In this document: positions 31,258 through 48,757 of the stretch, one piece after another
How the letters are laid out: every line of letters starts with the position of its first letter
How positions within the stretch are numbered: the first letter of the stretch is position 1
Virus record (IMG/VR): IMGVR_UViG_3300008459_007659
Location: 1-64,000 of that record
Strand: one strand, 5' to 3'
Length of the DNA stretch: 64,000 bases
Source: an uncultured virus (IMG/VR IMGVR_UViG_3300008459_007659)
Taxonomy: Duplodnaviria; Heunggongvirae; Uroviricota; Caudoviricetes
Made by a program: the position numbers and the translations under genes
The notes under the pieces: generated by a model
Seen by the model: the letters and a program-made list of their open reading frames with translations, nothing else
Told to the model about the DNA's origin: nothing
Databases searched by the model: none

Positions 31258-34200
31258 ATGGCAAACATTAGAATTACCGATTTAGATTTAGTCCCATTTT
31301 CATCAATAACTGTTGATGACGTTTTTCCATTGGTAGATGTTAGTGGTAATACCACATATAAAATTAATTTAAATCAATTAAGTAATTATTTATCAGGATT
31401 TAATAACCGTTGGTACATTGAATCAGGTGAAACAATAACCGTAAGAACAAATACTCAAAGTTTTATATATAACGATTTAATTGTTTATGGTAATTTAGTT
31501 TTGGAAAATAACTCAAAACTATTTGTTGTTAATGGGAACATTGAACTTATAAGTGGGGGAACAATTTCAAATGATGGGGGAGATATAATTTTAATTGATT
31601 TACCTGAATTTGATACCAAAGTTACTGATTTTACATATAATGACAATGAATTTACTATATCAAATAATATTGGTAGTTCATATTCAGTTTCACTTAATGA
31701 AGTTACAGGTTTAACTGTAAACGGTAATTTTAGTGCAACAACAATAAGTGCGTCTACTATTGATTTGTGTGGTACAAATGGAATATTATTTACCGATACC
31801 ATATCAGGATGTTCCCCAATTAATATTTTAAGTTTTGCAATTTTTCACGAAGGGTTAAGTGCCAATACAATTTCTGCAATAACATATCAAAATTTACCTG
31901 ACAATGTTACTGGATTTTATTTACCATTAAGTGGAGGGACAGTTACTGGATCAACAACATTTACTAATGGATTATTGTCAAGTACAATCTCTGCAACAAC
32001 AATAAGTGGAGGTACTTTTTATGGTGATGGTAGTAACTTACTTGGTAGTATAACTGGTGGAACTAATTTAGGTGACGGATTACCAATTTTTAGTAACACT
32101 CAAAATAAAAATTTAGAATTTAACTCAATTACTGGAGACACCCTTGATAAAATTTCAACTACTCTTAATTCAAACAAAATTGAAATTGGGATAAATGAAC
32201 CTAATTTAGATATTTGGCCTTTAGTGGTAAAAGGAAGTAAGTTGTTAAATGGTGGTGTTTCATATATAAGCGGTTATACTTTTGAGGTAAGTCCTTTAGA
32301 ATATATAATTGGAGAAACTATATATTCAATAACATCGTCATCAACTGTTGTATTGAATTCGGGAGATAGTACATATGATAGGATTGATGTTATTATATCC
32401 GACGTTTTTGGGAATACATCTGTAATTCAAGGAACACCATCCTTAAATCCCGAAAAACCAAATATAGATGAATTAACCCAACTTGAAATTACATTTATAT
32501 TGGTACCAGCAAATAGTATTGAACCTGATATAACCACACTAATATTATATAATAATAATTTGGGGACACCAACGGAATGGACATTTGGTTCGGTTGGTTC
32601 ACAACCAACAAGAATAATTTCATCAGCAACTGAAGAAACTTACAGTGGATCAACATCTATTAGAGTTAGTGGTGTTACAGGTGCATTTACAACATCTTTT
32701 AGATTAACTGGATTAACTACTGTTGACACAACAAATTATTCTTCATTACAATTTGCAATAAGAAATTTATCCGCAAACACAACAACAACACAAATAAGAT
32801 TCAGATTTTTAACATCCACAGGTACTCAAAATGGTAGTGCTGTTTTTATGAATGCCGCGGGTTCTTCAAACTTTGTCCAATATAATAATACTAACACATC
32901 ATCATGGCAAGTAATATCAATACCTTTATGGAGATTTTATCTAACTAATAATTTTGCACAAATTTTAGAAGTATCATTCAATAGTCCTAATGCAAGATAT
33001 TATTTTGATTTAATCGAATTGTTAGAGGGTTATTCATCTTCCCCTCCTGTTAATTCTTGGACGGCAATAAAAGGTGATGGGACAACCACTATTACCGCAC
33101 CAAACCCAAATGCTACTTTAACAATTTCAGGTGGAACAAATATTAGTTCATCAATATCTGGTTCATCTACTGTTGTTCTAAACTTGGATAATAATATTTC
33201 ACTTAATAGTGTTAGTGCAACAACTATAAGTGGGGGAACATTTTATGGTGATGGTAGTAATCTTACAGGAATTGGTGGTGGAGATAACTTTTTACCATTA
33301 AGTGGTGGTACGGTAACAGGTGATACTATTTTTACACAAAATATTACTGCGAATACCGTTAATAGTTTAAGGTTAGGTATTGGTGGTGGAAACATAAATT
33401 CTAATATTTCGTTGGGAACAAATTCACTCCAATCTAATACTACAGGATTTGAAAACATTTCTTTTGGTAATCAATCACTCCAAAACAATACAACAGGTGT
33501 TAGAAATATTGCAATTGGTTCAAATACTTTACAAGCTAACATAACAGGAAATTACAACGTATCATTGGGTAGATATTCACTCCGATGCAATACAACAGGT
33601 AGTAACAACGTATCATTGGGTAGATATTCACTCCGATGGAATACAACGGGTAGTAACAACGTATCATTGGGTGCGTGTTCACTCCTTTGTAACAGTACAG
33701 GTACTGCAAATATTGCGTTGGGTCAAAGTTCACTCCAACGTAACACAACAGGTTACCGAAACGTATCATTAGGTAGTTATTCACTCTATTCTAACACAAC
33801 AGGAACTAACAATGTATCGTTGGGTGCAAATTCACTCATATCCAATATCTCAGGATGTTTAAACGTGAGTATAGGTACAAATTCACTCCTATCTAACACA
33901 ACAGGAGGTAGTAACATATCGATGGGTTTTCAATCACTCCGTAACAACACAACAGGAACTAACAACATATCGTTAGGTGGGTGTTCACTTTATTGTAACA
34001 GTATAGGATGTAACAACGTATCATTGGGTAGATATTCACTCCAACGTAACACAACAGGAAATAATAACGTTGCGTTGGGTTACTCCTCACTCCGATGTAA
34101 CACAACAGGATTATACAACGTATCGTTGGGTCAAAATTCACTCCGATTAAACACAACAGGATGTAACAACGTATCGTTGGGATCAAGCTCACTCCAAAAT

Positions 34201-35799
34201 AATACAACAGGTAATCACAACATATCATTGGGTTCAGGTTCACTCCTATCCAATATTTCAGGATGTTACAACGTATCGTTAGGTCAAAGTTCACTACTAA
34301 ACAACACCACAGGATGTAACAACGTATCGTTGGGTAATTGCTCACTCCGAGGTAACACAACAGGATGTAACAACGTATCGTTAGGTTTGTGTTCACTCCG
34401 AGCAAACACTACAGGTAATGGAAATATTGCGTTAGGACAAGTTTCATTATTTAGTAATACAACTGGTTATCGTAATATTGGTTTAGGTGTAAGTTTAGTT
34501 GCAAATACCACAGGGTCTAATAATATAGCCCTTGGGGATAATGCATTAGCCTTTAACACAACAGGAAATGGTAATATTGCATTGGGATCAAGATCTTTAA
34601 GAAGTAATACAACAGGGTTTTACAACGTCTCTATTGGTTGCGGTGCAATGTATTGTAGTACAACTAGTAATTTTAATACCGCAATAGGTTTTAGATCGTT
34701 ATTTTGTAACACAACAGGTACTCGTAATGTTGGGATTGGTCAACAAACACTTTACGATAATACTACAGGTAATGATAATGTTGCGTTAGGGTATAGAATT
34801 TTAAGACGTAACACAACAGGATGTAACAACGTATCGTTAGGTTCTCTTTCACTATATGGTAATACAGTAGGAAATTACAACGTAGCGTTAGGACAATCTG
34901 CTTTACGTTGTAATACTTCAGGTACAACTAATGTTGGAATTGGGAGGTGTTCTTTGTGTTTAAATACAACAGGTTCTTACAACGTAGCGTTGGGTCAAAA
35001 TTCACTCCGATCAAACACAACAGGATGTCTTAATGTTGCGTTGGGATCATGTTCACTCCAAAACAACACAACAGGATGTTTTAATGTTGCTTTAGGTTTA
35101 AGTTCACTCCGATTAAACACAACAGGATGTAACAACGTATCGTTGGGACAACTTTCGCTCTTTTCTAACACAACAGGAGCATACAACGTATCGTTGGGTA
35201 CAGGTTCACTAAACACTAACACAACAGGATGTAACAACGTATCGTTGGGTAATCGTTCATTAAACTTTAACACAACAGGTTCTGACAACGTATCGTTGGG
35301 TAATCGTTCACTCCAATGTAATATTAATGGTGGATCAAATGTATCAATAGGAAGGTATTCATTACAATGTAACACTTCGGGAACTTTAAATGTTTCTATA
35401 GGAGAAAGGTCAATGAGAAATAATACAACATCTAATTTTAACATTGCAATGGGTTATAACTCACTTTTTAGTAATTTATCAGGTAATACTAATATAAGTT
35501 TGGGTGTACAATCTTTATTTAGTAATAATGTTGGGGCGTGTAATATTGCAATAGGATTTAAAAGTGCTTGTATTAATACTTCAGGAAATACAAACGTTGT
35601 TATAGGATGTGAAGCACAAACGGGTGATTTTTCTAATTCGGTAATATTAGGTAATAGTGCCACTGCGGGTAATAATAATGAATTTGTGGTAGGTAGTTCA
35701 GGAACTCCTTTAGGAACAATAACAACCGAATCGTGCACATCAAGTAAAACATGGCAGATAAGAGTCAATGGTAACTTATATAAATTACTATTGGCTTAA
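31258..35799 (+). CDS. Long tail fibre/adhesin with CBM-like domain and ~43 17-aa beta-solenoid repeats
   Basis: LPLSGGTVTG and TISGGTFYGDGSNL fibre motifs (each twice); NxxLGxxSLxxNTTG repeats resembling YadA-like head repeats. Confidence 0.75.
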   Translation: MANIRITDLDLVPFSSITVDDVFPLVDVSGNTTYKINLNQLSNYLSGFNNRWYIESGETITVRTNTQSFIYNDLIVYGNLVLENNSKLFVVNGNIELISGGTISNDGGDIILIDLPEFDTKVTDFTYNDNEFTISNNIGSSYSVSLNEVTGLTVNGNFSATTISASTIDLCGTNGILFTDTISGCSPINILSFAIFHEGLSANTISAITYQNLPDNVTGFYLPLSGGTVTGSTTFTNGLLSSTISATTISGGTFYGDGSNLLGSITGGTNLGDGLPIFSNTQNKNLEFNSITGDTLDKISTTLNSNKIEIGINEPNLDIWPLVVKGSKLLNGGVSYISGYTFEVSPLEYIIGETIYSITSSSTVVLNSGDSTYDRIDVIISDVFGNTSVIQGTPSLNPEKPNIDELTQLEITFILVPANSIEPDITTLILYNNNLGTPTEWTFGSVGSQPTRIISSATEETYSGSTSIRVSGVTGAFTTSFRLTGLTTVDTTNYSSLQFAIRNLSANTTTTQIRFRFLTSTGTQNGSAVFMNAAGSSNFVQYNNTNTSSWQVISIPLWRFYLTNNFAQILEVSFNSPNARYYFDLIELLEGYSSSPPVNSWTAIKGDGTTTITAPNPNATLTISGGTNISSSISGSSTVVLNLDNNISLNSVSATTISGGTFYGDGSNLTGIGGGDNFLPLSGGTVTGDTIFTQNITANTVNSLRLGIGGGNINSNISLGTNSLQSNTTGFENISFGNQSLQNNTTGVRNIAIGSNTLQANITGNYNVSLGRYSLRCNTTGSNNVSLGRYSLRWNTTGSNNVSLGACSLLCNSTGTANIALGQSSLQRNTTGYRNVSLGSYSLYSNTTGTNNVSLGANSLISNISGCLNVSIGTNSLLSNTTGGSNISMGFQSLRNNTTGTNNISLGGCSLYCNSIGCNNVSLGRYSLQRNTTGNNNVALGYSSLRCNTTGLYNVSLGQNSLRLNTTGCNNVSLGSSSLQNNTTGNHNISLGSGSLLSNISGCYNVSLGQSSLLNNTTGCNNVSLGNCSLRGNTTGCNNVSLGLCSLRANTTGNGNIALGQVSLFSNTTGYRNIGLGVSLVANTTGSNNIALGDNALAFNTTGNGNIALGSRSLRSNTTGFYNVSIGCGAMYCSTTSNFNTAIGFRSLFCNTTGTRNVGIGQQTLYDNTTGNDNVALGYRILRRNTTGCNNVSLGSLSLYGNTVGNYNVALGQSALRCNTSGTTNVGIGRCSLCLNTTGSYNVALGQNSLRSNTTGCLNVALGSCSLQNNTTGCFNVALGLSSLRLNTTGCNNVSLGQLSLFSNTTGAYNVSLGTGSLNTNTTGCNNVSLGNRSLNFNTTGSDNVSLGNRSLQCNINGGSNVSIGRYSLQCNTSGTLNVSIGERSMRNNTTSNFNIAMGYNSLFSNLSGNTNISLGVQSLFSNNVGACNIAIGFKSACINTSGNTNVVIGCEAQTGDFSNSVILGNSATAGNNNEFVVGSSGTPLGTITTESCTSSKTWQIRVNGNLYKLLLA
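33400..35600 (+). repeat. 51-nt coding tandem repeat, about 43 units
   Basis: Consensus aacacaacagga-N6-aacgtatcgttgggt-N6-tcactc-N6. Confidence 0.92.
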
Positions 35800-35840
35800 A
35801 ATATTTTATGTTTATGTTTTAGTTAAATTAATAATATAAC

Positions 35841-36662
35841 ATGGTACAAAAAATTTTTTTTAACGCATCACTACCGAGAGCAGGATCAACATTACTGCAA
35901 AATATTCTAATGCAAAATCCTGATATTTATTCCACACCAACTTCTGGTGTTATAGAATTATTATCAACCGCAAGAACATTATATTCTAATGGAGATGCGT
36001 TTAAGGCTCAAGATTCTGAAACTATGAAATCAGGATTTAAAAATTTTTGTAACAAAGGTTTTTTTGGGTTTTATGATGGTGTTACTAATAGACCTTATGT
36101 TATGGAAAAAAGTAGAGGTTGGCTTGGATACCAAGATTTTGTTGAATTTTTTATGGATGAAAAACCTAAAATAATTTGTATGGTTCGTGATTTGAGATCA
36201 ATATTTTCATCAATGGAAAAAAATTATAGAAAAAATCCTGATAAAGATCCAAACATTGTTAATACTGTTGAATTAAAAAATATGACAACAACATCAAGGA
36301 TAGATCATTACTCAATTTCTCCCCCAATCGGACCATCATTAGAATGGTTATCGGAGACATTCCAAAGAAAACAAAATAAAGATATACTTTTTATCCGATT
36401 TGAGGATTTAACATCAAATCCTGATACTGAACTTAAAAAGATTTACAACTATTTAGAATTACCTTACTACCAACATGATTTTAATAATGTACAACAACTT
36501 ACATTTGAGAATGATATAATCCATGGGATTTTTGGTGATCACCAAATTAAATCTCAGGTAAAACCTGTTAAAGATGATTACGTTGATATATTAAGTCAAG
36601 AAAATTGTGATAGATTAAGACAACATTATGATTGGTTTTTTAGGACATTTAACTATTTATAA
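35841..36662 (+). CDS. PAPS-dependent sulfotransferase (RaxST/Sulfotransfer_3-like), copy 1
   Basis: LPRAGSTLL (5'-PSB loop), KSRGW, VRDLRSIFSS (3'-PB), RFEDL, HDFNNV. Confidence 0.85.
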   Translation: MVQKIFFNASLPRAGSTLLQNILMQNPDIYSTPTSGVIELLSTARTLYSNGDAFKAQDSETMKSGFKNFCNKGFFGFYDGVTNRPYVMEKSRGWLGYQDFVEFFMDEKPKIICMVRDLRSIFSSMEKNYRKNPDKDPNIVNTVELKNMTTTSRIDHYSISPPIGPSLEWLSETFQRKQNKDILFIRFEDLTSNPDTELKKIYNYLELPYYQHDFNNVQQLTFENDIIHGIFGDHQIKSQVKPVKDDYVDILSQENCDRLRQHYDWFFRTFNYL

Positions 36663-36689
36663 TATATAAAAAATTAAAAATATAATAAA

Positions 36690-36932
36690 ATGGAAGAAAA
36701 TATAACACAAGAGCAAATCCAAAACAGTATCAACGCCGCGTTTGACTCCGTTAATTTAATAAATCAAATGTTAACGTCAGAAAAAACTGATGAAAACAAA
36801 AATACTGTAAAAAGAAATTTTGAACATTTGGAAATAATGTTATCAAAAGATTGGTTTTTAACAAATTTAACTGAACAACAAAAAACGGATATTGATTCTT
36901 CAATTGAAGATGGTAAATTGTTTATTTTGTAA
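36690..36932 (+). CDS. Small fibre-associated protein (possible assembly chaperone)
   Basis: 80 aa, helical, DSVNLI...RNFEHLEIM; located after the fibre gene. Confidence 0.4.
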   Translation: MEENITQEQIQNSINAAFDSVNLINQMLTSEKTDENKNTVKRNFEHLEIMLSKDWFLTNLTEQQKTDIDSSIEDGKLFIL

Positions 36933-36955: not shown

Positions 36956-37834
36956 ATGGAAGAAAAATATTTGGTTTGGCACATTGAGGGTGGTTTAGGT
37001 AAAAATATTGCGGCAACGGCATTATTAAATTCATTAAAAGAAAAATACAATGATAGAAAAATTGTTGTAGTTGCATCTTATCCCGAAATATTTTTAAACT
37101 TACCATCGGTATATAGGGTATACAAATTAGGTTCTACTCAGTATTTTTATGATGATTATATTAAAGATAAAGATACTATAGTTTTTAAACATGAACCATA
37201 TTATGAAACACAACATATATTGAAACAAAAACATTTGATTTCAAATTGGTGTAACATAATGGGAATAGATTATAATTTTCAATTACCAACTTTAAATTTT
37301 AATTTTGTTCAACAAAGGAATGTACTTTCATGGGAAAGAAGTAAACCTATTTTGGTGATTCAAACAAATGGAGGACATCTTCAGAGTAATCAATCTTATT
37401 CTTGGACAAGAGATTTGCCTTATATGATAACTTCTCAAATTGCAGAAAAATATAAAGAGACTCATCACATCATACAAGTATGTAAACCAAATTCAATAAA
37501 ATTACCAAACGCAGAAATTATTGATTATCAAATTCAATCAATGGATTTGTTTGGATTACTTATTGCAAGTGATAAAAGAATTCTAATTGATTCTTGTTTG
37601 CAACACGCATCCGCCGCACTTAATTTACCATCTACTGTGTTTTGGATTGGTACGTCACCTAAAAACTTTGGTTATTCATTACATAATAATATTATTGCTA
37701 ATCAACCAACCGATACCACAAAATTAATTGATGGTTATCTTTTTGACTATTCTTTTGACGGAATAAGTCACGAATGTCCTTATTATAGTTTGGAAGAAAT
37801 GTTTGACATACCAAATATCTTGGAAAAGATATAA
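36956..37834 (+). CDS. GT9-like (heptosyltransferase-fold) glycosyltransferase, copy 1
   Basis: GGLGKNI, IDSCLQHASAALNLPSTVFW. Confidence 0.7.
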   Translation: MEEKYLVWHIEGGLGKNIAATALLNSLKEKYNDRKIVVVASYPEIFLNLPSVYRVYKLGSTQYFYDDYIKDKDTIVFKHEPYYETQHILKQKHLISNWCNIMGIDYNFQLPTLNFNFVQQRNVLSWERSKPILVIQTNGGHLQSNQSYSWTRDLPYMITSQIAEKYKETHHIIQVCKPNSIKLPNAEIIDYQIQSMDLFGLLIASDKRILIDSCLQHASAALNLPSTVFWIGTSPKNFGYSLHNNIIANQPTDTTKLIDGYLFDYSFDGISHECPYYSLEEMFDIPNILEKI

Positions 37835-37931: not shown

Positions 37932-40811
37932 ATGGGAAAAATAATTCTTAAAAGTAATGGTGTTGAGACACAAATAATCAACGTAACCGATTTTACCGCA
38001 TTAAGTGGAGAATCAAATGTTTACGTTTTAGGTATTAACGATAACGGAGATGTTTTAGAACAATTTAATCCTGATGGTTCAGTAATCAAATTTGATAACA
38101 GTGGTGATAAAATCACTCAAGGAGTTTATAACGATAATACAGGAACTTTAACACTTACCGATTTAACAGGTGGAACTTTAACCGTTACAGGTTTTACAAC
38201 AGGATCAACTGAAATATACATAACAGGTGGTACATATTCCGCAAATACTATAACTTTTACAAATAATACGGGAGGAACATTTAATGTTACAGGTATTACA
38301 TCTGTATATGAAGTAGGTTCAGGAAGTAGTTCCGTCCAATTAGTGGGTGTTAGTGGTTCGGCAATTGGGGATTATTCTGTAGTAAGTGGAGGATTTAATA
38401 ATACAACTTTTGGTGACTGCTCAAGTATTGTCGGGGGTTCAAATAACCTAATAACTGGACCAACAGGAATTGTGAATTCAACGTATAACGGGATATATAG
38501 TGGGAGTACATTTAGTGGTTATTATGGAAGTTATTCACCATCATCAACATTATCAGGTTTAGGAACTGGTGCAACATTCTCATTTTATTTTAACCCACCA
38601 GGAACATTAAGTAATGTTTATGTTAATAATAACGGTAAGAATTACATTAATAATGATACTGTAACAGTACTTGGAAATGTCTTTGGCGGAACAATAGGAA
38701 CAGATAATGTTACATTCCAAATTGGAACAGTTAATGCTCCGTCTAATAGTTTTATTGGTAGTGGGGAATTTAATACAATTTCAGCATACTACGGTTGTTC
38801 TGTAATTGTCGGTGGTGAAAATAATAGAACTTACGATGGTTATGATTCTGTTAAAAATAACTTTATTGGTGGGGGATGTAATAATACTTCTAGTGGATAC
38901 TTCTCAACGGTTGTTGCGGGTAGAAACAATTGTTCTTTTGGTGATTGTGCCTTTGTTGGTGGTGGTTGTGGAAACCGAGCATATAGTAGATCAACAATCG
39001 CTGGTGGTAGAAGAAATACCGCAGGTATATCAGGAGGAGTTAATTCTGTAAATATTTTGGGTTCTTACACAGGTACTGGAGTTTCTCAAGGAACATATAG
39101 TGTTTATACAAATAATGTTATAAGTTCAGGAATTGGTTTAAGTTTATTAATTACTTTTGATAATTCTGGTGTTACTACAAATACCCAAGTTGAAAATAAT
39201 GGTAACTTATATAACACTTCCGATCAAGTTATTGTTCCAGGAAATTTATTTAATGGTGGAACATCACCATTAAATGATATTATTTATGAGATTACTGGTA
39301 CATTTACAAATTCTTACGCATCAATTATTGGTGGTTGTGGAAACAGATCTATTGGTGAGTATTCAACCATAAGTGGTGGTTATCGTAATACCGCATCAGG
39401 ATATGTATCAACAATAAGTGGTGGTTATTGTAATACCGCATCATCACAATACACGGTAATTGCTGGTGGTTGTTGTAATGAATCAAGAAAAAATTCATCA
39501 ACAGTAAGTGGTGGTAGAAGTAATACAGTTGATAACGAATACGATACAATTGGTGGTGGATATAGAAATACAACATTAGTTAGTGGAAGTGCTTGTGGGG
39601 TATCAACAATAAGTGGTGGATACCTTAATACATCTGGAAACTATTATACATTTAATGGTGGTGGTTGTAATAATAAAACTTTAGGGGAATACTCATCAAT
39701 CGTTGGGGGTTGTAATAACCAAATTCTTTCAGGTTTTGTTGATGGTGTGAATTTTAATGCGGGTGATGCTTCCTCAATACCTAATAACACATACACCGTT
39801 AATCCTACAAATATTAGTGGTTATGGTGACGGACTTCAAATAAGTTTTGATGTAAATAGTGGTGTAGTAAGTAATATTAGTATATTAAATCCTGGTATAA
39901 GATATGAAAGTGGGAATCAAGTTTTAGTTCTTGGGACTAGTATTGGTGGTTCATCGGCAAACGATTTAACATTTGATATATCAAATGTTAAATCATCAAA
40001 TCATTCATTTATTGGTGGTGGTAGAGAAAATACAACATTAAGTGATTGTTCAACCATAAGTGGAGGTTATGAGAACACTGTCAGCGGAAATTACGGATCT
40101 ATAGGTGGTGGAGCAAACAATACAATATCAACATATTCTGATTACGCAACAATCGGTGGAGGTGACGACAATACAATATTATCGGGTGAAGCACCAACAA
40201 TATCAGGTGGTGAAAACAATACAGTTAGTGGTCGTTATTCAACCGTTGGGGGTGGTAATTACAATGTAATAGAATCAATAACATCAAGTAATTATACTCA
40301 ATACGCATCAACAATTGGTGGAGGTTCTTGTAATACAATTTCATCATATAGTGGGTACTATGATATGTATGGTAATACAATTGCTGGTGGTACTTGTAAT
40401 ACAACGGTATCTTCAGAATACAACGGACAAACCATTAGTGGGGGATATAGGAATATAACAATGTCTAAATTCTCAACAGTTGGCGGTGGGTGTAACAACA
40501 CATCAAGTGGTGATTATTCATTTATTGGTGGTGGTAGAAGTAACACATCAAGTAGTAATTACTCTATGATTCTTGGTGGTAATTCTAACACGACAATTGG
40601 TATAAGAAGTGCGGTTGTTGGTGGACAAAACATTATTGCAACAGATGATGATATGGTTTATATGGCAAATGCCAATATTCAGTCATCCGGATATATTTAT
40701 TTTGGAGATGTGAACACAGACGGATCTTGGAGAATGAGAATATCTGGTACAACATTTATAATAGAAAAAAGAGTTGGTGGTTCTTGGGTAACATCAGGAA
40801 CATTTGTATAA
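37932..40811 (+). CDS. Fibre/adhesin with Gly-Gly beta-solenoid repeats and 3 inserted modules
   Basis: ~15-aa S[TS]I[SG]GGxxN[TR]xSG repeats; C-terminal DGSWR..ISG...EKRV.G.W. Confidence 0.7.
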   Translation: MGKIILKSNGVETQIINVTDFTALSGESNVYVLGINDNGDVLEQFNPDGSVIKFDNSGDKITQGVYNDNTGTLTLTDLTGGTLTVTGFTTGSTEIYITGGTYSANTITFTNNTGGTFNVTGITSVYEVGSGSSSVQLVGVSGSAIGDYSVVSGGFNNTTFGDCSSIVGGSNNLITGPTGIVNSTYNGIYSGSTFSGYYGSYSPSSTLSGLGTGATFSFYFNPPGTLSNVYVNNNGKNYINNDTVTVLGNVFGGTIGTDNVTFQIGTVNAPSNSFIGSGEFNTISAYYGCSVIVGGENNRTYDGYDSVKNNFIGGGCNNTSSGYFSTVVAGRNNCSFGDCAFVGGGCGNRAYSRSTIAGGRRNTAGISGGVNSVNILGSYTGTGVSQGTYSVYTNNVISSGIGLSLLITFDNSGVTTNTQVENNGNLYNTSDQVIVPGNLFNGGTSPLNDIIYEITGTFTNSYASIIGGCGNRSIGEYSTISGGYRNTASGYVSTISGGYCNTASSQYTVIAGGCCNESRKNSSTVSGGRSNTVDNEYDTIGGGYRNTTLVSGSACGVSTISGGYLNTSGNYYTFNGGGCNNKTLGEYSSIVGGCNNQILSGFVDGVNFNAGDASSIPNNTYTVNPTNISGYGDGLQISFDVNSGVVSNISILNPGIRYESGNQVLVLGTSIGGSSANDLTFDISNVKSSNHSFIGGGRENTTLSDCSTISGGYENTVSGNYGSIGGGANNTISTYSDYATIGGGDDNTILSGEAPTISGGENNTVSGRYSTVGGGNYNVIESITSSNYTQYASTIGGGSCNTISSYSGYYDMYGNTIAGGTCNTTVSSEYNGQTISGGYRNITMSKFSTVGGGCNNTSSGDYSFIGGGRSNTSSSNYSMILGGNSNTTIGIRSAVVGGQNIIATDDDMVYMANANIQSSGYIYFGDVNTDGSWRMRISGTTFIIEKRVGGSWVTSGTFV

Positions 40812-40833: not shown

Positions 40834-43734
40834 ATGGGATTTATAAGTGATAGTATATCGGGAACAACAATAAGTGGTGGAACTTTTTATGGTGATGGAT
40901 CGGGTCTAACTGATGTGTCATTAAACGATATTTTAACAGCATCAGCGATTCTTGGTGTAAATATAAACACGTCAAGTGATTACTTAGGTATTACAGCTAT
41001 TGACACATTTGATGATGAATCATCAAATTATATAAGTTGGACAAATGGATCAAACCAAGGAACTGGTTTTAATCCTTGGGTTATATCAACACAACCAAAT
41101 ACAGGTGTTTTTTTAGGAAATCCGGCTTCAGATGGAATGGGAACAACTGGTATTGGGACAAACGCATTCGCTTTATTTGCAACTGACGGATCAAACTATG
41201 TATCAACATCAAGAACATTTACAACACCTTTAAGTGTCGGTGAAGTGTTTTCTTTTTATTGGGCAATTAATTTTGATGCAAATGGTGGAAATAAAGGTTT
41301 TGATTTAAAAGCTGGTGGTGTAACAATATTTAATGCAAATAATAATAATACATCAACAATTACCTCAAATTTATCAGCACCATATAATGTTGTTGATGGT
41401 GGTTATGGGACAACACCAATGCTTGTAACATTAACAAGAGACTCGTCAACACAATATACAATAACAATAACATCAAGAAGTGGTGGTCCAACATATTCAG
41501 CACCAATAAATTCTTCATTAGCAATTAATGAATTAAGTTTTTATTGTGGAGCACAAAGTGATGGATCAGGACAAAGAAATTTATATTTTAATAAATTACA
41601 AATAACACAAAATGTAAGTTTAAATAAAGTTTCTGTTGATGAATTAAAAATCGCATTAAACGTTGGTGATATATTATATTCGGCAGGAACTGGAACCGAC
41701 TCAACTGTAAGAGTAGACAATGGAAATTTTGCAAATGGTAACTGCTCAATTGTTGCTGGAGGAAGTGGAAATATTAGTGATAGTCAATATTCAACAATCG
41801 GTGGTGGATGTAATAACACAATAAATAATTTTACAACAAATTCTAACTATTATTCGGTAGTTGGGAATTTAATTGGTGGGGGTAATCGTAATACAATTGA
41901 TTCTAATACGTTAAATGATGCCGATGTTGGTGGATCAGTAATTGGTGGTGGTTATGTAAATCAATTGATTTCACCTTTTTATGGTTTCAACACGGTTAAT
42001 GGTGGGGTTTTAAATAGAACATTTTTTGATTATAGTACAATTGGTGGTGGAGCAATCAATGTTAACTTAGATTCGTTTACAACAATCGGTGGTGGAGCAT
42101 TTAATACAAACTCAAGTTATACATCAACAATCGGTGGTGGTAATAATAATACAATTGGAACTTTATCTTCTTATTATAATGATCCTATTATTGGTCAAAC
42201 TATAGGTGGTGGATCTTGTAATACAATGTCATCTTATAGTGCTCAGTATTATAATGGTGGTAGTACAATTAGTGGTGGATATTGTAACACAACAGTTTCT
42301 TCATATTATGGAGGGCAAACTATATCAGGAGGGTTTAATAATATAACATCAAGTGATTATGCAACAGTTGGTGGAGGGGTTAGAAACACATCAAGTGGTT
42401 ATTATTCAACTGTAAGTGGTGGGATTAACAATACATCAAGTTGTGGTGGTTCATTTATTGGTGGTGGTTGTAACAACACATCAAGTTGTAATTATTCTAC
42501 CGTAAGTGGAGGTTATAGAAATACATCAAGTTGTTGTAATTCAACAATAGGTGGTGGTAGAAGTAACACAGTAAGTTCTTGTTATTCAACTGTTAGTGGG
42601 GGTCGTAACAACGTATCCGGAATTAGCGGAACTATATCAGGAATTTATGATCAAACATATAATGGAGGAACATTTAGTGGTTATTATGGGTCATATTCAC
42701 CAACCTCAACATCTTCAGGGTTTGGTAATGGAGGAACATTCTCATTTAATTTTAATACGGGAACATTGTCTAACGTTTATGTTAACACAATTGGTCAAAG
42801 TTATGTTCAAGGAGATACGTTATTATTTGACGGTACTTTATTTGGTGGATCAAGTGGTACTGATGATGTGACAATTAAAATTAATGTGACATCAAGTGGT
42901 AATAATTCTACCGTAAGTGGAGGTTATTGTAATACATCAATTGGTAGTAGTTCAACAGTAAGTGGTGGTAAAAGAAACACATCAAGTGGTAGTTATTCAA
43001 CAATTGGAGGTGGTAATGTTAACACATCAAGTTGTTATTACTCAACCGTTGGTGGTGGTAGAAATAACACGTCAAGCGATTATTGTTCAACCATTGGTGG
43101 TGGTTTTAATAATAAAATTAATCCAGCATCATCCGATAGTGGTACTATATACGCATCAACAATAGGAGGAGGATCTTGTAATACAATCGGAACATTATCG
43201 GCATATTATGATGTATATGGTGCAACAATAGGTGGGGGAACTTGTAATACAGTTGGGACATTATCCTCTTATTGTGGTGTGTATAGCTCAACAATTGGTG
43301 GAGGTTCCTTTAATATAATATCATCCTACAGTGGATACTATGAAATGTATGGTAATACAATAGCTGGTGGTACTTTTAATACAACGGTATCTTCAGAATA
43401 CAACGGACAAACAATTGGTGGAGGTCGTGGTAATGTAACAAGGTATAATTATTCAACTGTAAGTGGGGGTAGAACTAACACATCAAGTGGTTATTATTCA
43501 ACAATTGGTGGTGGTATAAATAACACATTAATAAATGGTTGTTCGGCAATACTTGGAGGAATATGTAATACGTCACAACACGATTGTTCATTTATTGTTG
43601 GTAGTGGTATATGTAGTACTGCCGCAAACACAACACACGTAAATTGTCTACATTTCAGTAACATACCTACATCGTCAGCAGGACTTGCACCAGGTACTGT
43701 ATATAGTGATTCGTGTGTATTAAAAATAGTATAA
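40834..43734 (+). CDS. Second Gly-Gly repeat fibre/adhesin
   Basis: TISGGTFYGDGS start; lectin-like N-domain; STIGGGxxNT repeats; C-terminal NIPTSSAGLAPGTVY...LKIV. Confidence 0.7.
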   Translation: MGFISDSISGTTISGGTFYGDGSGLTDVSLNDILTASAILGVNINTSSDYLGITAIDTFDDESSNYISWTNGSNQGTGFNPWVISTQPNTGVFLGNPASDGMGTTGIGTNAFALFATDGSNYVSTSRTFTTPLSVGEVFSFYWAINFDANGGNKGFDLKAGGVTIFNANNNNTSTITSNLSAPYNVVDGGYGTTPMLVTLTRDSSTQYTITITSRSGGPTYSAPINSSLAINELSFYCGAQSDGSGQRNLYFNKLQITQNVSLNKVSVDELKIALNVGDILYSAGTGTDSTVRVDNGNFANGNCSIVAGGSGNISDSQYSTIGGGCNNTINNFTTNSNYYSVVGNLIGGGNRNTIDSNTLNDADVGGSVIGGGYVNQLISPFYGFNTVNGGVLNRTFFDYSTIGGGAINVNLDSFTTIGGGAFNTNSSYTSTIGGGNNNTIGTLSSYYNDPIIGQTIGGGSCNTMSSYSAQYYNGGSTISGGYCNTTVSSYYGGQTISGGFNNITSSDYATVGGGVRNTSSGYYSTVSGGINNTSSCGGSFIGGGCNNTSSCNYSTVSGGYRNTSSCCNSTIGGGRSNTVSSCYSTVSGGRNNVSGISGTISGIYDQTYNGGTFSGYYGSYSPTSTSSGFGNGGTFSFNFNTGTLSNVYVNTIGQSYVQGDTLLFDGTLFGGSSGTDDVTIKINVTSSGNNSTVSGGYCNTSIGSSSTVSGGKRNTSSGSYSTIGGGNVNTSSCYYSTVGGGRNNTSSDYCSTIGGGFNNKINPASSDSGTIYASTIGGGSCNTIGTLSAYYDVYGATIGGGTCNTVGTLSSYCGVYSSTIGGGSFNIISSYSGYYEMYGNTIAGGTFNTTVSSEYNGQTIGGGRGNVTRYNYSTVSGGRTNTSSGYYSTIGGGINNTLINGCSAILGGICNTSQHDCSFIVGSGICSTAANTTHVNCLHFSNIPTSSAGLAPGTVYSDSCVLKIV

Positions 43735-43791
43735 AAAATAATATCAAAAAACATTTCTTAAGAGGAATAAATAAATAAAAAACAAATAAAA

Positions 43792-43983
43792 ATGGAAAAC
43801 AGAGAAATTAAATTATTGTTTAAATATGAGACACCAGTTACTATTGGTGAACATAAAGTAATTGCAATTAGACAAACACCAAAAGGTATTAGATTTAGAA
43901 CTGAAAATGGTCCTATTTTAAAGGAGGTTGAACGTAAAGAAACATGGACTGAACAAGAATTGCATGATTTATTGTTGAGTTAA
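43792..43983 (+). CDS. Small hypothetical protein
   Basis: 63-aa ORF with A-rich leader. Confidence 0.55.
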   Translation: MENREIKLLFKYETPVTIGEHKVIAIRQTPKGIRFRTENGPILKEVERKETWTEQELHDLLLS

Positions 43984-44035
43984 TATTTTAAAAAAAATAC
44001 ATATACTTTTACAAACATATTATTAAAATTGTAAT

Positions 44036-44779
44036 ATGTTTGTAACTGTATGTAATAAAGAATATCTTATTGGTTTTGAGGTAATGTTAAAATCTCTTGT
44101 GGAGAATAACCCAAGAGTTATTGAGGAAGATATCCCATTCACAATTATTAGTAATGATTTAACATCAGATGATTTAATAGTTGCGAGAAAAATTCATAAT
44201 AATATTTCATTAAAAACCTATGATTCATCAAAATATTATGAAATTGATGAGTTAAAAAAACAACAGATGTCGTTTGGTGATTACGCCAAATATGAAATAT
44301 TTTCTATTGAGGATGTTGATAAAATCATATTTCTTGATTCCGATACTTTAATATTAGGGAACATTGATAGATTAATTGACTCTGATTATAATTTTGGTGC
44401 TGTTAGAGAATTGTATATTGACCAATACAATACCGGAGTAATAGTCATTTCAAAGAAATATTTAAACCCTAAAATCACAAATGATTTAATCAATTTAACA
44501 AAAGTTTATGGAATAACTGAACATTCCGATCAGGATATTATAAATCATTACTTTGAAGACGTTATTAAAGATTTCCCAATTGAATATAATTTTTTAAAAA
44601 CATACAATAAAAAAGTATTCCAAAACACAGGGTTACCTAAGTACATCAAAATATTACACTACATAGTTAAAAAACCTTGGCAACAAAAAGAATTAGTGTC
44701 TTTAGAAGAAGGGACTTTATGGACTGAAAGATATTGGTTTGATTATTATTCAAAAATACTTAAACTAAAAAATGATTAA
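44036..44779 (+). CDS. GT8 glycosyltransferase
   Basis: FLDSDTL, YNTGV, DQDIIN, EYN, LHY..KPW. Confidence 0.85.
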   Translation: MFVTVCNKEYLIGFEVMLKSLVENNPRVIEEDIPFTIISNDLTSDDLIVARKIHNNISLKTYDSSKYYEIDELKKQQMSFGDYAKYEIFSIEDVDKIIFLDSDTLILGNIDRLIDSDYNFGAVRELYIDQYNTGVIVISKKYLNPKITNDLINLTKVYGITEHSDQDIINHYFEDVIKDFPIEYNFLKTYNKKVFQNTGLPKYIKILHYIVKKPWQQKELVSLEEGTLWTERYWFDYYSKILKLKND

Positions 44780-45680
44780 AAGACATTACGATAAAAGTGA
44801 GTTATTAAACTACGTTGAGTTAGATAAGGATACAACAACATTAGAGAATAAAGTAATATTATTACATTTAGATTCTTTTTGTTTGGGGGATACTATTTGT
44901 TTTGCGTCATTTATTGATTCATTTATAGATTACCACAACCCAAAAAAAGTTATTGTATCCACATTTTTTCCTCATTTATTAATATCAAATAATGAAAAAT
45001 GTGAAATTATTAACGCCAATCAACAAAAAAAATTAACAATAGATAAATTAATTGATGTTGGTTATGATAAAAATAATATGTCACATACTTTGGGTGGTAT
45101 GTTGTATGCAACCAAAGATACAATGATGATACCACAATCAACCGAACCAAAAAAACCAACATTAATACCAAAATTTAAAAACGTTAAATCAAATAAAATA
45201 ACTATTGCTCCCGAATCATTAAAATCAATTGCTCAATGGGATAGAGATGGTTGGCAGTTAGTTGTTGATTCTTTGGTTAATTCTGGTTTTGAGGTTTTTA
45301 ATGTCTCTTACGAAGATACATTAAAATTAAATAATGTTAAAGGATATCACGGATTTGATGATATCAACGTCTCGTTAAATCACATATTAGAATCAAGATT
45401 GTTTATTGGGCTATCTTCGGGATTATCTTGGTTGGCATGGGCGTATGATGTTCCAGTTGTTATGATTTCAGGTTTTACAAAAGAACACAATGAATTTGAT
45501 TGTTTTAGAGTTATTAATAAAAACGTTTGTAATGGGTGTTTTAATTTATTTCCAAATATTAGCACTAAATGTCCGATATTTTTAAATACAGAAAGAGAAA
45601 ACGAATGTCATAAAAAAATAACACCAAAAATGGTTATAGAACAAATAAACAAGGCAATTATGTTTACAAACAATAAATAA
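44772..45680 (+). CDS. Aah/TibC-like (autotransporter O-heptosyltransferase family) glycosyltransferase
   Basis: LGDTI, FIGLSSGLSWLAWA..VPVVMISGF, and a four-Cys tail CNGC...CP...EC.K.IT. Confidence 0.75.
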   Translation: MIKRHYDKSELLNYVELDKDTTTLENKVILLHLDSFCLGDTICFASFIDSFIDYHNPKKVIVSTFFPHLLISNNEKCEIINANQQKKLTIDKLIDVGYDKNNMSHTLGGMLYATKDTMMIPQSTEPKKPTLIPKFKNVKSNKITIAPESLKSIAQWDRDGWQLVVDSLVNSGFEVFNVSYEDTLKLNNVKGYHGFDDINVSLNHILESRLFIGLSSGLSWLAWAYDVPVVMISGFTKEHNEFDCFRVINKNVCNGCFNLFPNISTKCPIFLNTERENECHKKITPKMVIEQINKAIMFTNNK

Positions 45681-45697
45681 AATATTATTATAAATTT

Positions 45698-46585
45698 ATG
45701 GAAAAAAAATATTCAATATTTCATATAGAAGGTGGGTTAGGAAAACATATATGTGCAACTGCGGTTGCAAAATGTATTAAGAATAATTTCCCTGAAAGAG
45801 AGTTGATTGTGGTATGTGCTTACCCTGAAATATTTTTAAATTTAGAATTTATTGATAGAGTGTATAGAATTGGTAACACACCATATTTCTACGATGACTT
45901 CATTAATGATAAAGATTCAAAAATATTTAAACATGAACCTTATTTCACTGATGAACACATACATAAAAAATTACCTCTAATTGAGAATTGGTGCAAACTG
46001 TTTAATTTGAATTATTTAGGAGAGAAACCTGAATTAGTATTTAATCTTAGGCAAAAACAAACAGGTATTAACAAATGGAAAAGAGATAAACCTGTGATGG
46101 TAATCCAAACAAACGGAGGACCCTTAAATGATCAACCTTATCCATATTCTTGGACTAGAGATATTCCGTATGATGTTGCTCAACATTTAGTTAATTATTT
46201 TTCACCACAATATCACATAATTCAAATATGTAGAAATGAAAAAAATGCAATTGCAGGATGTGAAGTTATTACAGAACAAATGTCTAACATGGAATTGTTT
46301 TCACTATTGTTTATGTCTGAAAAAAGAATTTTAATTGATTCTTGTTTGCAACACGCATCTGCGGCAATGGGAATACCATCAACTGTTTTATGGATAGGTA
46401 CATCGCCAGTTATGTTTGGTTATAACACACACAAAAATATTATTGCAAAATTACCTAACACGGTGAAATTACCTGATAGTTATTTGTTTGATTATAATTT
46501 TAATGGGTTAACACATGAATGTCCTTTAATAGATACCGATATTTTTGATATCGACGAAATAATATATAATATAAATAATTTTTAA
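45698..46585 (+). CDS. GT9-like glycosyltransferase, copy 2
   Basis: Full-length paralogue of 36956..37834. Confidence 0.7.
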   Translation: MEKKYSIFHIEGGLGKHICATAVAKCIKNNFPERELIVVCAYPEIFLNLEFIDRVYRIGNTPYFYDDFINDKDSKIFKHEPYFTDEHIHKKLPLIENWCKLFNLNYLGEKPELVFNLRQKQTGINKWKRDKPVMVIQTNGGPLNDQPYPYSWTRDIPYDVAQHLVNYFSPQYHIIQICRNEKNAIAGCEVITEQMSNMELFSLLFMSEKRILIDSCLQHASAAMGIPSTVLWIGTSPVMFGYNTHKNIIAKLPNTVKLPDSYLFDYNFNGLTHECPLIDTDIFDIDEIIYNINNF

Positions 46586-46586
46586 T

Positions 46587-47408
46587 ATGGTAGAAAAGAT
46601 ATTTTTTCAAAGCTCATTACCAAGAGCTGGTTCAACATTATTACAAAACATAATGGGGCAAAATCCTGATTTTTATGTTACACCAACTTCAGGTGTTTTA
46701 GAACTTGTATATGCCGCAAGAAACAATTACACTAACTCGCCTGAATTTAAGGCTCAAGATTCTAAATTAATGAAAGATGGGTTCATATCATTTTGTAAAA
46801 ATGGTATGGAGGGATTTTTTAATGGTGTAACAGATAAACCTTATGTTTTAGATAAAAGTAGAGGGTGGGGAGTTCACTATGGTTTTTTAAATTCTTTTTA
46901 TCCTGAACCTAAAATAATTTGTATGGTTAGAGATCCAAGATCAATTTTTGCGTCAATGGAGAAAAATTTTAGGAAAAGTCAACATTTAGATTCAGGATTG
47001 GTTAATCATGCTCAAATGGCAGGAACAACGACTGAAAAGAGAATTGATATATGGGCTCAATCACAACCTGTTGGTTTGGCTTTAGAAAGATTACAACAAA
47101 TTTTTAGAGAAGGGGTAAACGACAAAATATTGTTTGTTAGATTTGAGGATTTAACCTCAAGTCCTAAAACAGAAATAGAAAGAATTTATACCTATTTAGG
47201 ATTACCGTATTATGAAGGTCATGACTTTAATAACGTAACTCAAATTACAAAAGAAGATGATTCAATTTATGGTATTTACGGTGATCATGTCATTAAACAA
47301 CGAATAGAACCTACCAAAAAAGATTATCGGGATATCTTAGGTGATGATGCTTCTAATTGGATAAAAAACAGATACAAATGGGTATTTAATCAATTTGGTT
47401 ATTTTTAA
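46587..47408 (+). CDS. PAPS-dependent sulfotransferase, copy 2
   Basis: Full-length paralogue of 35841..36662; LPRAGSTLL, VRDPRSIFAS. Confidence 0.85.
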   Translation: MVEKIFFQSSLPRAGSTLLQNIMGQNPDFYVTPTSGVLELVYAARNNYTNSPEFKAQDSKLMKDGFISFCKNGMEGFFNGVTDKPYVLDKSRGWGVHYGFLNSFYPEPKIICMVRDPRSIFASMEKNFRKSQHLDSGLVNHAQMAGTTTEKRIDIWAQSQPVGLALERLQQIFREGVNDKILFVRFEDLTSSPKTEIERIYTYLGLPYYEGHDFNNVTQITKEDDSIYGIYGDHVIKQRIEPTKKDYRDILGDDASNWIKNRYKWVFNQFGYF

Positions 47409-47413
47409 TTATT

Positions 47414-47872
47414 ATGGAGAATAAAATTTATTGGTTTACCGGTCAGCCAGGTGCGGGAAAGACAGTTTTGTCTTTAATGTTAAAAACGGTTTTAGAACTT
47501 GACAATAGTAATAAAGTATTTCATATTGATGGAGATGAATTAAGAAGTCTTTTTAATAATCAAAAATACGGTAGAGAAGGTCGTGAAGAGAATATAAAAC
47601 GAGCACAAGATATTGCTAAATTTATATTAGCTCAAGGACATAGTGTTGTTGTTAGTTTGGTTGCACCATACAAAGAACTTAGAGAAAGTCTTAAACAAGA
47701 GTTGGGTAATTTGCTTGTTGAGTTTTATGTTCACACTACAGATATTAGAGGTAGAGAACATTTTCACACCGACGAATATGAAAAACCAACAGAAAATTAT
47801 TTAGATATTAATACAACTAATGTTGACCCACAAATATCACTAAACCAAATAATAGAACACATTTCAAAATGA
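47414..47872 (+). CDS. cysC: Adenylylsulfate (APS) kinase
   Basis: WFTGQPGAGKT P-loop, IDGDELR, GREENIKR, VSLVAPY, YEKP. Confidence 0.85.
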   Translation: MENKIYWFTGQPGAGKTVLSLMLKTVLELDNSNKVFHIDGDELRSLFNNQKYGREGREENIKRAQDIAKFILAQGHSVVVSLVAPYKELRESLKQELGNLLVEFYVHTTDIRGREHFHTDEYEKPTENYLDINTTNVDPQISLNQIIEHISK

Positions 47873-48333
47873 ATTGGGAAGTAAAAAATCACGGAGGAGA
47901 ACCTACAACAAACGAAAGTAAAAAATATGCAATATTTGTTGGTAGATACCAACCATACCATTATGGACATATTGAGTTAATACAACAAAAATTAAATCAA
48001 GGAATTCCTGCTCTTATTATGGTTAGGGATATTGAACCTGACGAAAAAAATCCATTTACCACTGAACAAACGGTAAAGATGATTGAGGAATATCATAACT
48101 CAAAAGGTGATGATGTTAAAGTTGTTATTATTCCTGATATTGAATCTGTTAATTACGGTAGAGGTGTTGGGTATGAAATAAATGAATTCACACCACCAGA
48201 TAATATTGGATTCATATCTGCAACAGGAATAAGAAACTCAATTGCTAAAGGTGACGACAAATGGAAAGATATGGTGGACGAATCAATACAAGATTATATA
48301 ATTAATTTTTTAACATATGCAAATACAAAGTAA
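47869..48333 (+). CDS. Small HxGH nucleotidyltransferase (cytidyltransferase-like)
   Basis: GRYQPYHYGH, NPF, ISATGIR; ATGA overlap with cysC. Confidence 0.8.
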   Translation: MNWEVKNHGGEPTTNESKKYAIFVGRYQPYHYGHIELIQQKLNQGIPALIMVRDIEPDEKNPFTTEQTVKMIEEYHNSKGDDVKVVIIPDIESVNYGRGVGYEINEFTPPDNIGFISATGIRNSIAKGDDKWKDMVDESIQDYIINFLTYANTK

Positions 48334-48757
48334 AACTTATCAAATCAGATTTAACACAGATTCAAAAACTGATGATGAAAGATGGAGATTAATTGAAAAC
48401 GGTAACGAGACATTAGTTTCAGACATCATTATTGATGGACACACTCAAACAACTAAAGATTGGTTACCGGAAATTAATGATTATAAATGGCATGTTAGTT
48501 GTGTTGGTTATTGTAGTATTGAGAATAATGTTGCATATATAAAAACCATAAAAGAAGAATCTGTATTAATTAGACATATTTTAAAAACAGTTAGTTATAG
48601 ATTTTTAGGAACCTTAACTACAGTTGTTGTTGCATATTCGTTAGGGGCAACAATTGAGGTTTCGGCATTGCTTGGTGTTGGTGAACTTATTATGAAACCA
48701 TTTATATATTTTGGTCACGAAAGATTGTGGTATAAATATATAAGAATTAAAAAATAA
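48317..48757 (+). CDS. DUF2061-like membrane domain protein with N-terminal extension
   Basis: KTVSYRFLGT...IYFGHERLW. Confidence 0.7.
   Translation: MQIQSKTYQIRFNTDSKTDDERWRLIENGNETLVSDIIIDGHTQTTKDWLPEINDYKWHVSCVGYCSIENNVAYIKTIKEESVLIRHILKTVSYRFLGTLTTVVVAYSLGATIEVSALLGVGELIMKPFIYFGHERLWYKYIRIKK

Follow-up and report, generated by a model that had tools for sequence, protein, structure and literature searches.

A putative cassette for glycosylation and sulfation of fibre-like proteins, with a candidate small ATP sulfurylase, in a jumbo phage

The window analyzed here (64,000 nucleotides) is the first 64 kb of contig G000, a 130,562-bp viral contig of 31% G+C recorded in IMG/VR as IMGVR_UViG_3300008459_007659. 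Positions 31258 to 48757 of the window carry a cassette in which the genes of three long, repeat-rich fibre-like proteins (F1, F2, and F3) are interleaved with genes for sulfotransferases, glycosyltransferases, and putative enzymes for supplying the sulfate donor 3'-phosphoadenosine 5'-phosphosulfate (PAPS). We consider it somewhat probable that this cassette serves to attach sugars and sulfate to the phage's own adhesin-like fibres in the cytoplasm of the infected cell, before or during assembly. The observations behind this reading are the identities and folds of the gene products, the conserved linkage of the enzyme genes to fibre genes, and the complementary distribution of a small nucleotidyltransferase (NT) and the CysD/Sat enzymes.

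All of the genes listed by an initial annotation of the window were found in the open reading frame (ORF) list at the same positions, all on the + strand and with gaps of -17 to +97 bp. The genes of the cassette, with the main evidence for each (protein lengths in amino acids, aa), were as follows.

31258-35799, +: F1, fibre-like protein of 1513 aa (PHROG tail spike and virion structural families)
35841-36662, +: ST1, PAPS-type sulfotransferase (PF13469, 5e-15; PF00685, 3e-14)
36690-36932, +: sm80, 80-aa protein (family-less in Pfam, PHROG, and NCBIfam scans)
36956-37834, +: GT9a, GT-B glycosyltransferase with a predicted GT9 fold (member of alignment A1; fold evidence through the GT9b model)
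37932-40811, +: F2, fibre-like protein of 959 aa, rich in Gly, Ser, Asn, and Thr (repeats; homology to F3)
40834-43734, +: F3, fibre-like protein of 966 aa (repeats; predicted YadA-head-like fold)
43792-43983, +: sm63, 63-aa protein without a family match
44036-44779, +: GT8-family glycosyltransferase (PF01501, 1.9e-21)
44772-45680, +: GT9x, TibC/Aah-like glycosyltransferase (TIGR04414, 2.5e-35)
45698-46585, +: GT9b, glycosyltransferase with a predicted GT9 fold (AlphaFold2 model and Foldseek)
46587-47408, +: ST2, PAPS-type sulfotransferase (PF13469, 3.1e-23)
47414-47872, +: CysC-like protein, lid-shortened homologue of adenosine 5'-phosphosulfate (APS) kinase, 152 aa (PF01583, 5.4e-19)
47869-48333, +: NT, HxGH nucleotidyltransferase of 154 aa (PF01467, CTP_transf_like, 1e-7)
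48317-48757, +: DUF2061, small membrane protein (PF09834, 1.2e-12)
48786-51271, +: Thr/Pro-rich protein of 164 aa (T 23%, P 20%), then a 645-aa protein with DUF285/PARCEL repeats (PF03382, 2e-106)

The last two proteins are possible further surface proteins or substrates, and their membership of the cassette is uncertain. In window-like loci their genes are kept behind the triad of CysC-like, NT, and DUF2061 genes.

The linkage of the enzymes to fibre genes in relatives, on which the initial annotation had staked its interpretation, was examined around relatives of ST2. The viral collection held 109 of these, from which 80 loci with 66 distinct sulfotransferase sequences were kept; neighbours were annotated by BLAST against the window proteins, and counts were restricted to the 49 distinct loci flanked by 3 kb or more on either side. 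The linkage held in most of them: a fibre-like ORF lay within 3 kb of the sulfotransferase in 38 of the 49 loci and within 1 kb in 24. GT9a or GT9b was found within 10 bp of the sulfotransferase in 29/49 loci and within 1 kb in 37/49, with GT9b as the near-constant upstream partner of ST2, and CysC was found within 3 kb in 29/49. In 28 loci the fibre gene preceded the sulfotransferase and had the same orientation; in 8 it followed in the opposite orientation and in 5 in the same one, so the linkage survives rearrangement. The order of the window (fibre, GT8, GT9x, GT9b, ST2, triad) was one arrangement; others were fibre, GT9b, and ST2 alone, the triad ahead of GT9b with a convergent fibre gene downstream, and F1, ST1, sm80, triad, and GT9a in succession. 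In most loci of this lineage the triad adjoins the sulfotransferase.

The pairing was also specific to subtype. An ST1-type gene lay directly 3' of an F1-type fibre gene (gap 6-59 bp) in all seven distinct loci, and GT9a was kept in ST1-type loci. The neighbours of ST2-type genes were F2/F3-type fibres in 30 loci and F1-type fibres in 4. The two small genes of the cassette recur in relative loci as well, sm80 behind ST1 in L073-L082 (52-74% identity) and sm63 behind F-like genes in L013, L015/16, and L055 (83-85% identity). In five long genomes, 5 of 7 sulfotransferases lay within 3 kb of a fibre-like ORF against a genomic baseline of 5-10% (P = 2.7e-5, assuming independent cases).

ST1 and ST2 were 56% identical to each other, and both scored above the Pfam cut-off of 27 bits for sulfotransferase families (ST2 83.6 bits, ST1 56.7 bits; PF13469/PF00685). 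The motifs PRAGST, near the N-terminus, and RDxRS, which we take to be the 5'-phosphosulfate-binding (5'-PSB) and 3'-phosphate-binding (3'-PB) motifs for PAPS, were present, and P12, R13, G15, S16, and R115 were invariant in 29 sequences. The best solved relative of the family profile was the tyrosylprotein sulfotransferase (TPST) TPST1 (9e-10), and ST2 also matched the NCBIfam model of NoeE (6e-9). An assignment as a tyrosylprotein sulfotransferase of the TPST or RaxST kind was unsupported beyond family level, since residues 6-124 and 165-209 alone align. The GEE stretch of TPSTs holds the catalytic base Glu; in the phage family, the GEE of TPST1 aligns to tPt (Pro-Thr). The sequence does not reveal the acceptor type; TPST1 and NoeE are equally distant. 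The function of phage sulfotransferases "remains unclear" according to the available text of a 2023 paper (PMC10580990).

The glycosyltransferases were compared with family models and solved structures. GT9x matched TIGR04414, the "autotransporter strand-loop-strand O-heptosyltransferase" model, with 122.2 bits (2.5e-35) over profile positions 77-373 of 374. A profile of 11 GT9x relatives (A2) aligned with TibC (4rap) over TibC residues 90-389 (3.4e-54), and C253, C256, C267, and C279 were at least 90% conserved in the GT9x family and in register with the Cys residues of TibC. PDB titles describe TibC as iron-containing, and these four Cys presumably bind the iron. The Aah/TibC-like label given by the initial annotation was therefore correct. 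Its label "GT9-like" for the paralogues GT9a and GT9b (52% identity to each other) stood at the level of the fold and failed at the level of sequence: PF01075 matched neither protein, and the profile A1 had no PDB sequence match. The GT9b model (pLDDT, the predicted local distance difference test, 91.8) retrieved 3tov (1.4e-11; template modelling score, TM, 0.68 by query), 1psw (WaaF, 1.5e-10), WaaC (1e-8), and TibC (7e-7) in Foldseek. GT9a and GT9b are thus GT9-like by predicted fold alone, with a GT-B fold closest to heptosyltransferases. A sequence link between GT9a/b and GT9x was tried and rejected (hhalign of A1 against A2, 7.5% probability only). An open-access word search of titles and abstracts found no paper on a phage enzyme of the TibC/Aah type. 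In Microcystis phage Mel-JY01 (L092:4750-8430), a protein of 1226 aa annotated "methyltransferase FkbM" ends in a TibC-like domain, and its gene lies directly behind a "structural protein" gene, near the terminase gene.

The fibre-like proteins consist largely of short repeats. F1 contains 37 tandem 17-residue repeats, N-[VI]-[SA]-[LI]-G-x-x-S-L-x-x-N-T-T-G-x-x, with 90 NxS/T motifs observed and 54 expected. It matched the virion structural families phrog_23837 (5e-173) and phrog_4636, "tail spike" (1e-102), and in tblastn it matched annotated tail fibre or tail structural proteins of pelagiphages, roseophages, and cyanophages. F2 and F3, which were 44% identical over 497 aa (4e-65), have 15-residue repeats, with the consensus T-[IV]-[SG]-G-G-x-x-N-T-S-S-x-x-Y-S in F3. 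In all three proteins Ser, Thr, Tyr, and Asn occupy fixed repeat positions. F2 and F3 had no match in Pfam, PHROG, or NCBIfam scans. The ESM Atlas model of F3 had viral proteins and YadA-head adhesins as its structural neighbours, and F2 folded without an alignment gave a mean pLDDT of 36, which is not usable. An F3 paralogue of 1035 aa (39% identical over 687 aa) is encoded in the tail/baseplate module, adjoining a phrog_1645 "virion structural protein" gene. Homology thus suggests that F1-F3 are virion components, the label "fibre" for F2 and F3 being based on repeat homology and likeness of predicted structure. A Cys-rich protein of 818 aa with a TPTPTP linker and no family match is encoded directly upstream of F1 (28781-31237, +), and its gene has the same position next to the fibre genes in L007-L011, L019, and L073.

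The putative PAPS supply was analyzed gene by gene. The CysC-like protein matched PF01583 with 69.2 bits (cut-off 21.1) over profile positions 4-110 of 152 and scored under every NCBIfam cut-off. Its best PDB matches were all APS kinases, down to 1.4e-12, and the P-loop, DGD-R, and R/N motifs were kept. In L010 and L011, which are otherwise syntenic with L013-L020, the kinase (at about 10.8-11.3 kb in each locus) was 45-46% and the adjoining NT 75-77% identical to those of the window, which suggests that the kinase was exchanged beside a stable NT.

NT has HxGH and ISxTxxR-type motifs in common with the archaeal nicotinamide mononucleotide adenylyltransferases (NMNATs), and it scored under the NMNAT cut-offs (52.1 bits vs 127 for TIGR01527; 48.4 vs 181.2 for NF002243). 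The Sat family of ATP sulfurylases (PF01747) had no match in G000 or in G001, a 304,365-bp contig that was 100% identical to G000 across matched genes; a lone trace of 9.6 bits (E 0.05) in phage genome G005 maps, by coordinate arithmetic, onto the NT homologue of that phage. G001 is rated 100% complete, and neither Sat nor CysD was found in it; PAPS reductase was not found in five phage genomes. Longer homologues of NT were matched 142 times. Of ten that were inspected, seven consisted of an N-terminal APS kinase and a C-terminal NT, with a full 152-position APS-kinase match in four (up to 234 bits), and one joined Sulfotransfer_2 to NT. Relatives of NT numbered at least 560, and 80 viral loci centred on NT were examined among them. 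An APS kinase gene lay no more than 5 kb away in 75/80 of these loci, DUF2061 in 53/80, a recognised sulfotransferase in 29/80, and a GT9 gene in 21/80. A role of NT as an adenylyltransferase forming ADP-heptose for the GT9 enzymes was rejected on the last of these counts set against the first.

Cellular relatives of NT were found in the same company. In 22 of 23 loci of marine Flavobacteriales, NT lay directly 3' of a canonical APS kinase, often near a CysQ-family phosphatase gene, a sulfotransferase gene, and polysaccharide genes. Among 151 Flavobacteriales genomes, 72 were positive for APS kinase; a CysD/CysH-family match was present in none of the 6 of these with NT and in all 66 without it (Fisher P = 6.4e-9), and Sat was found in 0/151. 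All five Dadabacteria-type chromosomes with NT had an APS kinase and one 242-aa PAPS_reduct ORF, read as CysH by size only; neither Sat nor a CysD-sized (300-aa) ORF was found in the five. Because NT is fused or linked to APS kinase and occurs where CysD and Sat matches are absent, it is probably the missing ATP sulfurylase, an unrecognised, small, and non-canonical one that would work like Sat without being a member of its family. The PAPS pathway of the phage would then be complete; the initial annotation, which listed NT simply as an HxGH nucleotidyltransferase, understated this point. An open-access word search, which is not proof of absence, found no paper on an NMNAT-like ATP sulfurylase.

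DUF2061, which has one strong hydrophobic segment, lay within 5 kb of NT in the 53 viral loci counted above and in 0/80 cellular loci. It is the third member of a CysC-NT-DUF2061 unit and joins the pair in phages only. No fused forms were found among longer proteins, a structure-atlas search returned its own viral family alone, and of six papers that mention DUF2061 none has a title about its function. In a group of small viral contigs (L142, L151, and L160-L170), the neighbours of the kinase-NT pair were N6/N4 DNA methylase, DUF3310, and DHH-type genes, and a recognised sulfotransferase was absent up to a distance of 5 kb; either the pair has further uses, or the sulfotransferase is encoded elsewhere.

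The source phage was characterized from G000 and G001. The completeness of G000 is about 44% in CheckV, and genes for tail sheath, tube, and baseplate lie on it. The remainder of G001 encodes a T4-type Gp23 major capsid protein, Gp20 portal, prohead protease, and terminase, and the phage is therefore a T4-like jumbo phage of about 304 kb. Its PolB was just 23-25% identical to the best matches, so it has no close cultured relative. The domains of the type IX secretion system (T9SS) are specific to Bacteroidota. G001 encodes one protein with a T9SS CHU_C domain and SprB repeats, the tail module encodes another SprB-repeat protein, and the window NT was 77-79% identical to Flavobacteriales genes. 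The host is thus probably a member of the Bacteroidota, and the guess made in this direction by the initial annotation gains support from the CHU_C/SprB protein and the NT identity. Both ends of G001 (L256:650-2678 and L265:11746-13774) carry the same pair of genes, a glutamine-synthetase-like gene and a methyltransferase gene with DUF3310, which fits terminal redundancy or a circularly permuted assembly.

In the scheme that we propose, of which the substrate, sugar, site, order of steps, and effect on adsorption are the conjectural parts, NT would make APS by adenylylating sulfate, after which the CysC-like kinase would add a phosphate to yield PAPS. The substrates would be the long repeat proteins F1, F2, and F3, which present a rung bearing Ser, Thr, or Tyr every 15-17 residues. 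GT9x, GT9a, GT9b, and GT8 would put sugars on these rungs, and sulfate from PAPS would then be added by ST1 to F1, in partnership with GT9a, and by ST2 to F2 and F3, in partnership with GT9b. The sulfate would most likely be placed on the sugar installed by the partner glycosyltransferase; direct sulfation of Tyr, Ser, or Thr seems less likely. Export machinery was sought in family scans of all window ORFs of at least 100 aa, of 109 of the 243 ORFs outside the shared part, and of 17 large ORFs of the 64-130 kb part, and no Wzx flippase, Wzy polymerase, or initiating transferase was found among the ORFs covered. A crude hydropathy scan of 107 G000 ORFs gave none with four or more predicted membrane segments, and the rest of G001 had one. 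The lack of export machinery in these scans and the presence of a TibC-type enzyme favour soluble enzymes acting on protein; use of the export machinery of the host would be compatible with the same lack.

Other parts of the window also encode sugar-related and surface-related proteins. A second large sugar island lies at 9039-26104 (-), with a GDP-mannose 4,6-dehydratase (13485-14459), a GMER-like epimerase (12584-13495), five FkbM-type methyltransferases, two GT2 genes, a Fringe-like gene, and further glycosyltransferases, interspersed with PhoH, dUTPase, and exonuclease genes; its content suggests a methylated deoxyhexose glycan. Right behind the cassette (51319-55559, +) lie genes for a PF11397 "GlcNAc" transferase (1.9e-71), a GT25 enzyme, and an HtrL/YibB-like protein of 560 aa. 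At 60540-61637 (-), Fe/Mn superoxide dismutase domains (residues 169-357) follow an N-terminal extension of about 165 residues. A 640-aa protein without a family match (5980-7902, -) has three predicted membrane segments (residues 419-525), the most of any G000 ORF.

Several findings weigh against modification of the fibres by the cassette. F1-F3 are encoded in an accessory island between replication genes, outside the tail module, and the conserved Ser, Thr, and Asn of YadA-like repeats can be structural only. GT9x falls under the curated TIGR04414 cut-off (200 bits) and is without the first ~76-90 residues of TibC, and no ADP-heptose pathway families were seen in family scans of the window ORFs and the sampled rest of the genome. 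The CysC-like protein is without about 21-26 lid-region residues of canonical APS kinases, the closest named relatives of NT are archaeal NMNATs (5.7e-14 in NCBIfam; 2e-6 in PDB), the six NT-bearing Flavobacteriales may be one clade, and a recognised sulfotransferase lies within 5 kb in just 29 of the 80 viral NT loci. The linkage counts overstate independent support, because related loci share ancestry, and fibre-like ORFs were recognised by BLASTP on low-complexity repeats. Of the distinct loci flanked by about 10 kb on either side, 4 of 37 had no fibre-like ORF in reach; a second, divergent sulfotransferase (G002:C1:178192-178977; family-profile score 176 bits) has its nearest fibre-like ORF at a distance of 69 kb, and Synechococcus phages S-SKS1 and S-SCSM1 have homologous sulfotransferases (25-29% identity) whose neighbours are not annotated as fibre genes. 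The idea of fibre decoration in the initial annotation is supported in part, by the enzyme-fibre linkage, the matching of subtypes, the TibC/Aah-group enzyme, and the lack of export families among the ORFs scanned; these Synechococcus phage homologues speak against its generality.

The enzymes might instead remodel the host surface or make a free sulfated glycan, for superinfection block, release, or capsule change, with the fibre genes close by because both belong to a shared, fast-changing host-interaction island. The GDP-sugar enzymes, the five FkbM-type methyltransferases, and the other glycosyltransferases, including the GT25 and HtrL/YibB genes (families named after lipopolysaccharide, LPS, genes), would suit this role, as would the preference of the GT8 and GT9 families for LPS cores, the match of ST2 to the sugar sulfotransferase NoeE, the few well-flanked loci without a fibre-like gene, and the polysaccharide genes and Sulfotransfer_1 gene that adjoin the APS kinase-NT pair in cellular Flavobacteriales. 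We regard it as unlikely, since the scanned ORFs lacked flippase, polymerase, ligase, and initiating-transferase families and hardly any encoded a multi-pass membrane protein, since a tight, subtype-matched fibre pairing in several gene orders is unexpected for host-directed enzymes, and since the known members of the GT9x group act on proteins. The modified proteins could also belong to the phage without F1-F3 being the main or only target; the Thr/Pro-rich, DUF285, and Cys-rich (28781-31237) proteins or capsid and tail proteins would then be candidates, or F1-F3 would be non-virion adhesins released or displayed during infection. O-glycosylation classically takes place on PT-rich linkers, which are present in the 28781-31237 protein and in the 164-aa ORF; the genes of the Cys-rich, Thr/Pro-rich, and DUF285 proteins are kept beside the cassette in window-like loci, and F1-F3 lie outside the tail module. 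The glycosylation of mycobacteriophages was reported on capsid proteins, according to the available text of PMC12363180. We nevertheless rate this alternative as improbable: most loci with the trio of fibre, GT9, and sulfotransferase genes lack the Thr/Pro-rich and DUF285 genes, ST1 is always pressed against F1, and F1 matches virion structural families.

The kinase and NT could finally be an auxiliary metabolic module unrelated to the fibres, one that boosts sulfate assimilation of the host or uses NT as an NMNAT for salvage of nicotinamide adenine dinucleotide (NAD), while the sulfotransferases act on small molecules or nucleic-acid sugars. The NMNATs are indeed the best named matches of NT, and the 5-kb surroundings of NT are free of recognised sulfotransferases in 51 of the 80 loci, some of which lie beside DNA methylase and DUF3310 genes. 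This is very improbable in our view, because the scores of NT stay far from all NMNAT cut-offs, because homologues of it are joined to full-length APS kinase and in one case to a sulfotransferase, because it stands in for CysD/Sat in two bacterial lineages, and because the five phage genomes gave no PAPS reductase and the triad adjoins the sulfotransferase in most loci of this lineage.

Modification of the phage's own fibres by glycosylation and sulfation, if it takes place, would mean that host recognition uses a chemistry invisible to sequence-based predictions of receptor binding, and it would be new among the virion modifications described in phages. An open-access word search found no paper on a sulfated phage virion, which is not proof of absence. 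Effects on adsorption, particle stickiness, and resistance to proteases or grazing in aquatic systems are a matter of speculation. The cassette also offers a defined enzyme-substrate pair for the question of phage sulfotransferase function raised in the available text of PMC10580990. If NT is an ATP sulfurylase, sulfate activation may be present in genomes that are currently interpreted as lacking it, and NT would be a very small enzyme of this kind, useful for the enzymatic making of PAPS. The broadest form of the proposal is that a widespread jumbo-phage lineage of marine and freshwater Bacteroidota coats its own tail fibres with sulfated sugars using only its own enzymes, including an ATP sulfurylase of a third kind, about 150 residues long, that also stands in for CysDN and Sat in certain Flavobacteriales and Dadabacteria-type bacteria; we put this forward tentatively, as possible rather than probable.

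The cassette was compared with known systems, of which the TibC-TibA and Aah-AIDA-I pairs and the glycosylation of mycobacteriophage virions come closest. ST1 and ST2 belong to the same PAPS-dependent fold family (PF13469/PF00685) as TPST1/2 and NoeE, but they match mainly in the PAPS-binding half, and the position of the TPST GEE stretch is Pro-Thr in the phage family. The repeats of AIDA-I and TibA are 19-residue beta-helix rungs, whereas the phage fibre-like proteins have YadA-head-like repeats of 15-17 residues. As in TibC-TibA and Aah-AIDA-I of E. coli (PDB 4rap, 4rb4), the gene of a GT9-related, iron-containing type of glycosyltransferase adjoins the gene of a long repeat adhesin, which in E. 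coli is modified in the cytoplasm. Unlike those systems, the cassette is set in a phage, its GT9x is shorter at the N-terminus and under the curated cut-off, sulfotransferases and a putative PAPS supply are added, and ADP-heptose genes were not seen in the scans described above. The domain order of animal PAPSS is kinase first, and the NT relatives that are fused have the same order. Like the bifunctional PAPS synthases (PAPSS1/2, 1x6v; Sat-CysC fusions, 2gks), the cassette would couple a candidate APS kinase with a candidate adenylyltransferase of the HxxH class; unlike in those enzymes, the NT has about 130-155 residues and no PUA-like domain, and its sequence is closest to archaeal NMNAT. 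The glycosyltransferases of mycobacteriophages Che8, Corndog, and Myrna modify the virion proteins of their own phages (Freeman et al., 2023, via PMC12363180), with a capsid target, antibody shielding, and mass-spectrometric proof in the available text of that source. The mycobacteriophage system lacks sulfation, PAPS genes, and a TibC-like enzyme, and its hosts are Actinobacteria; the cassette of the window is described here from gene content and linkage. The new elements are the phage-borne TibC-type enzyme, the paired sulfotransferases, and a putative self-contained route to PAPS.

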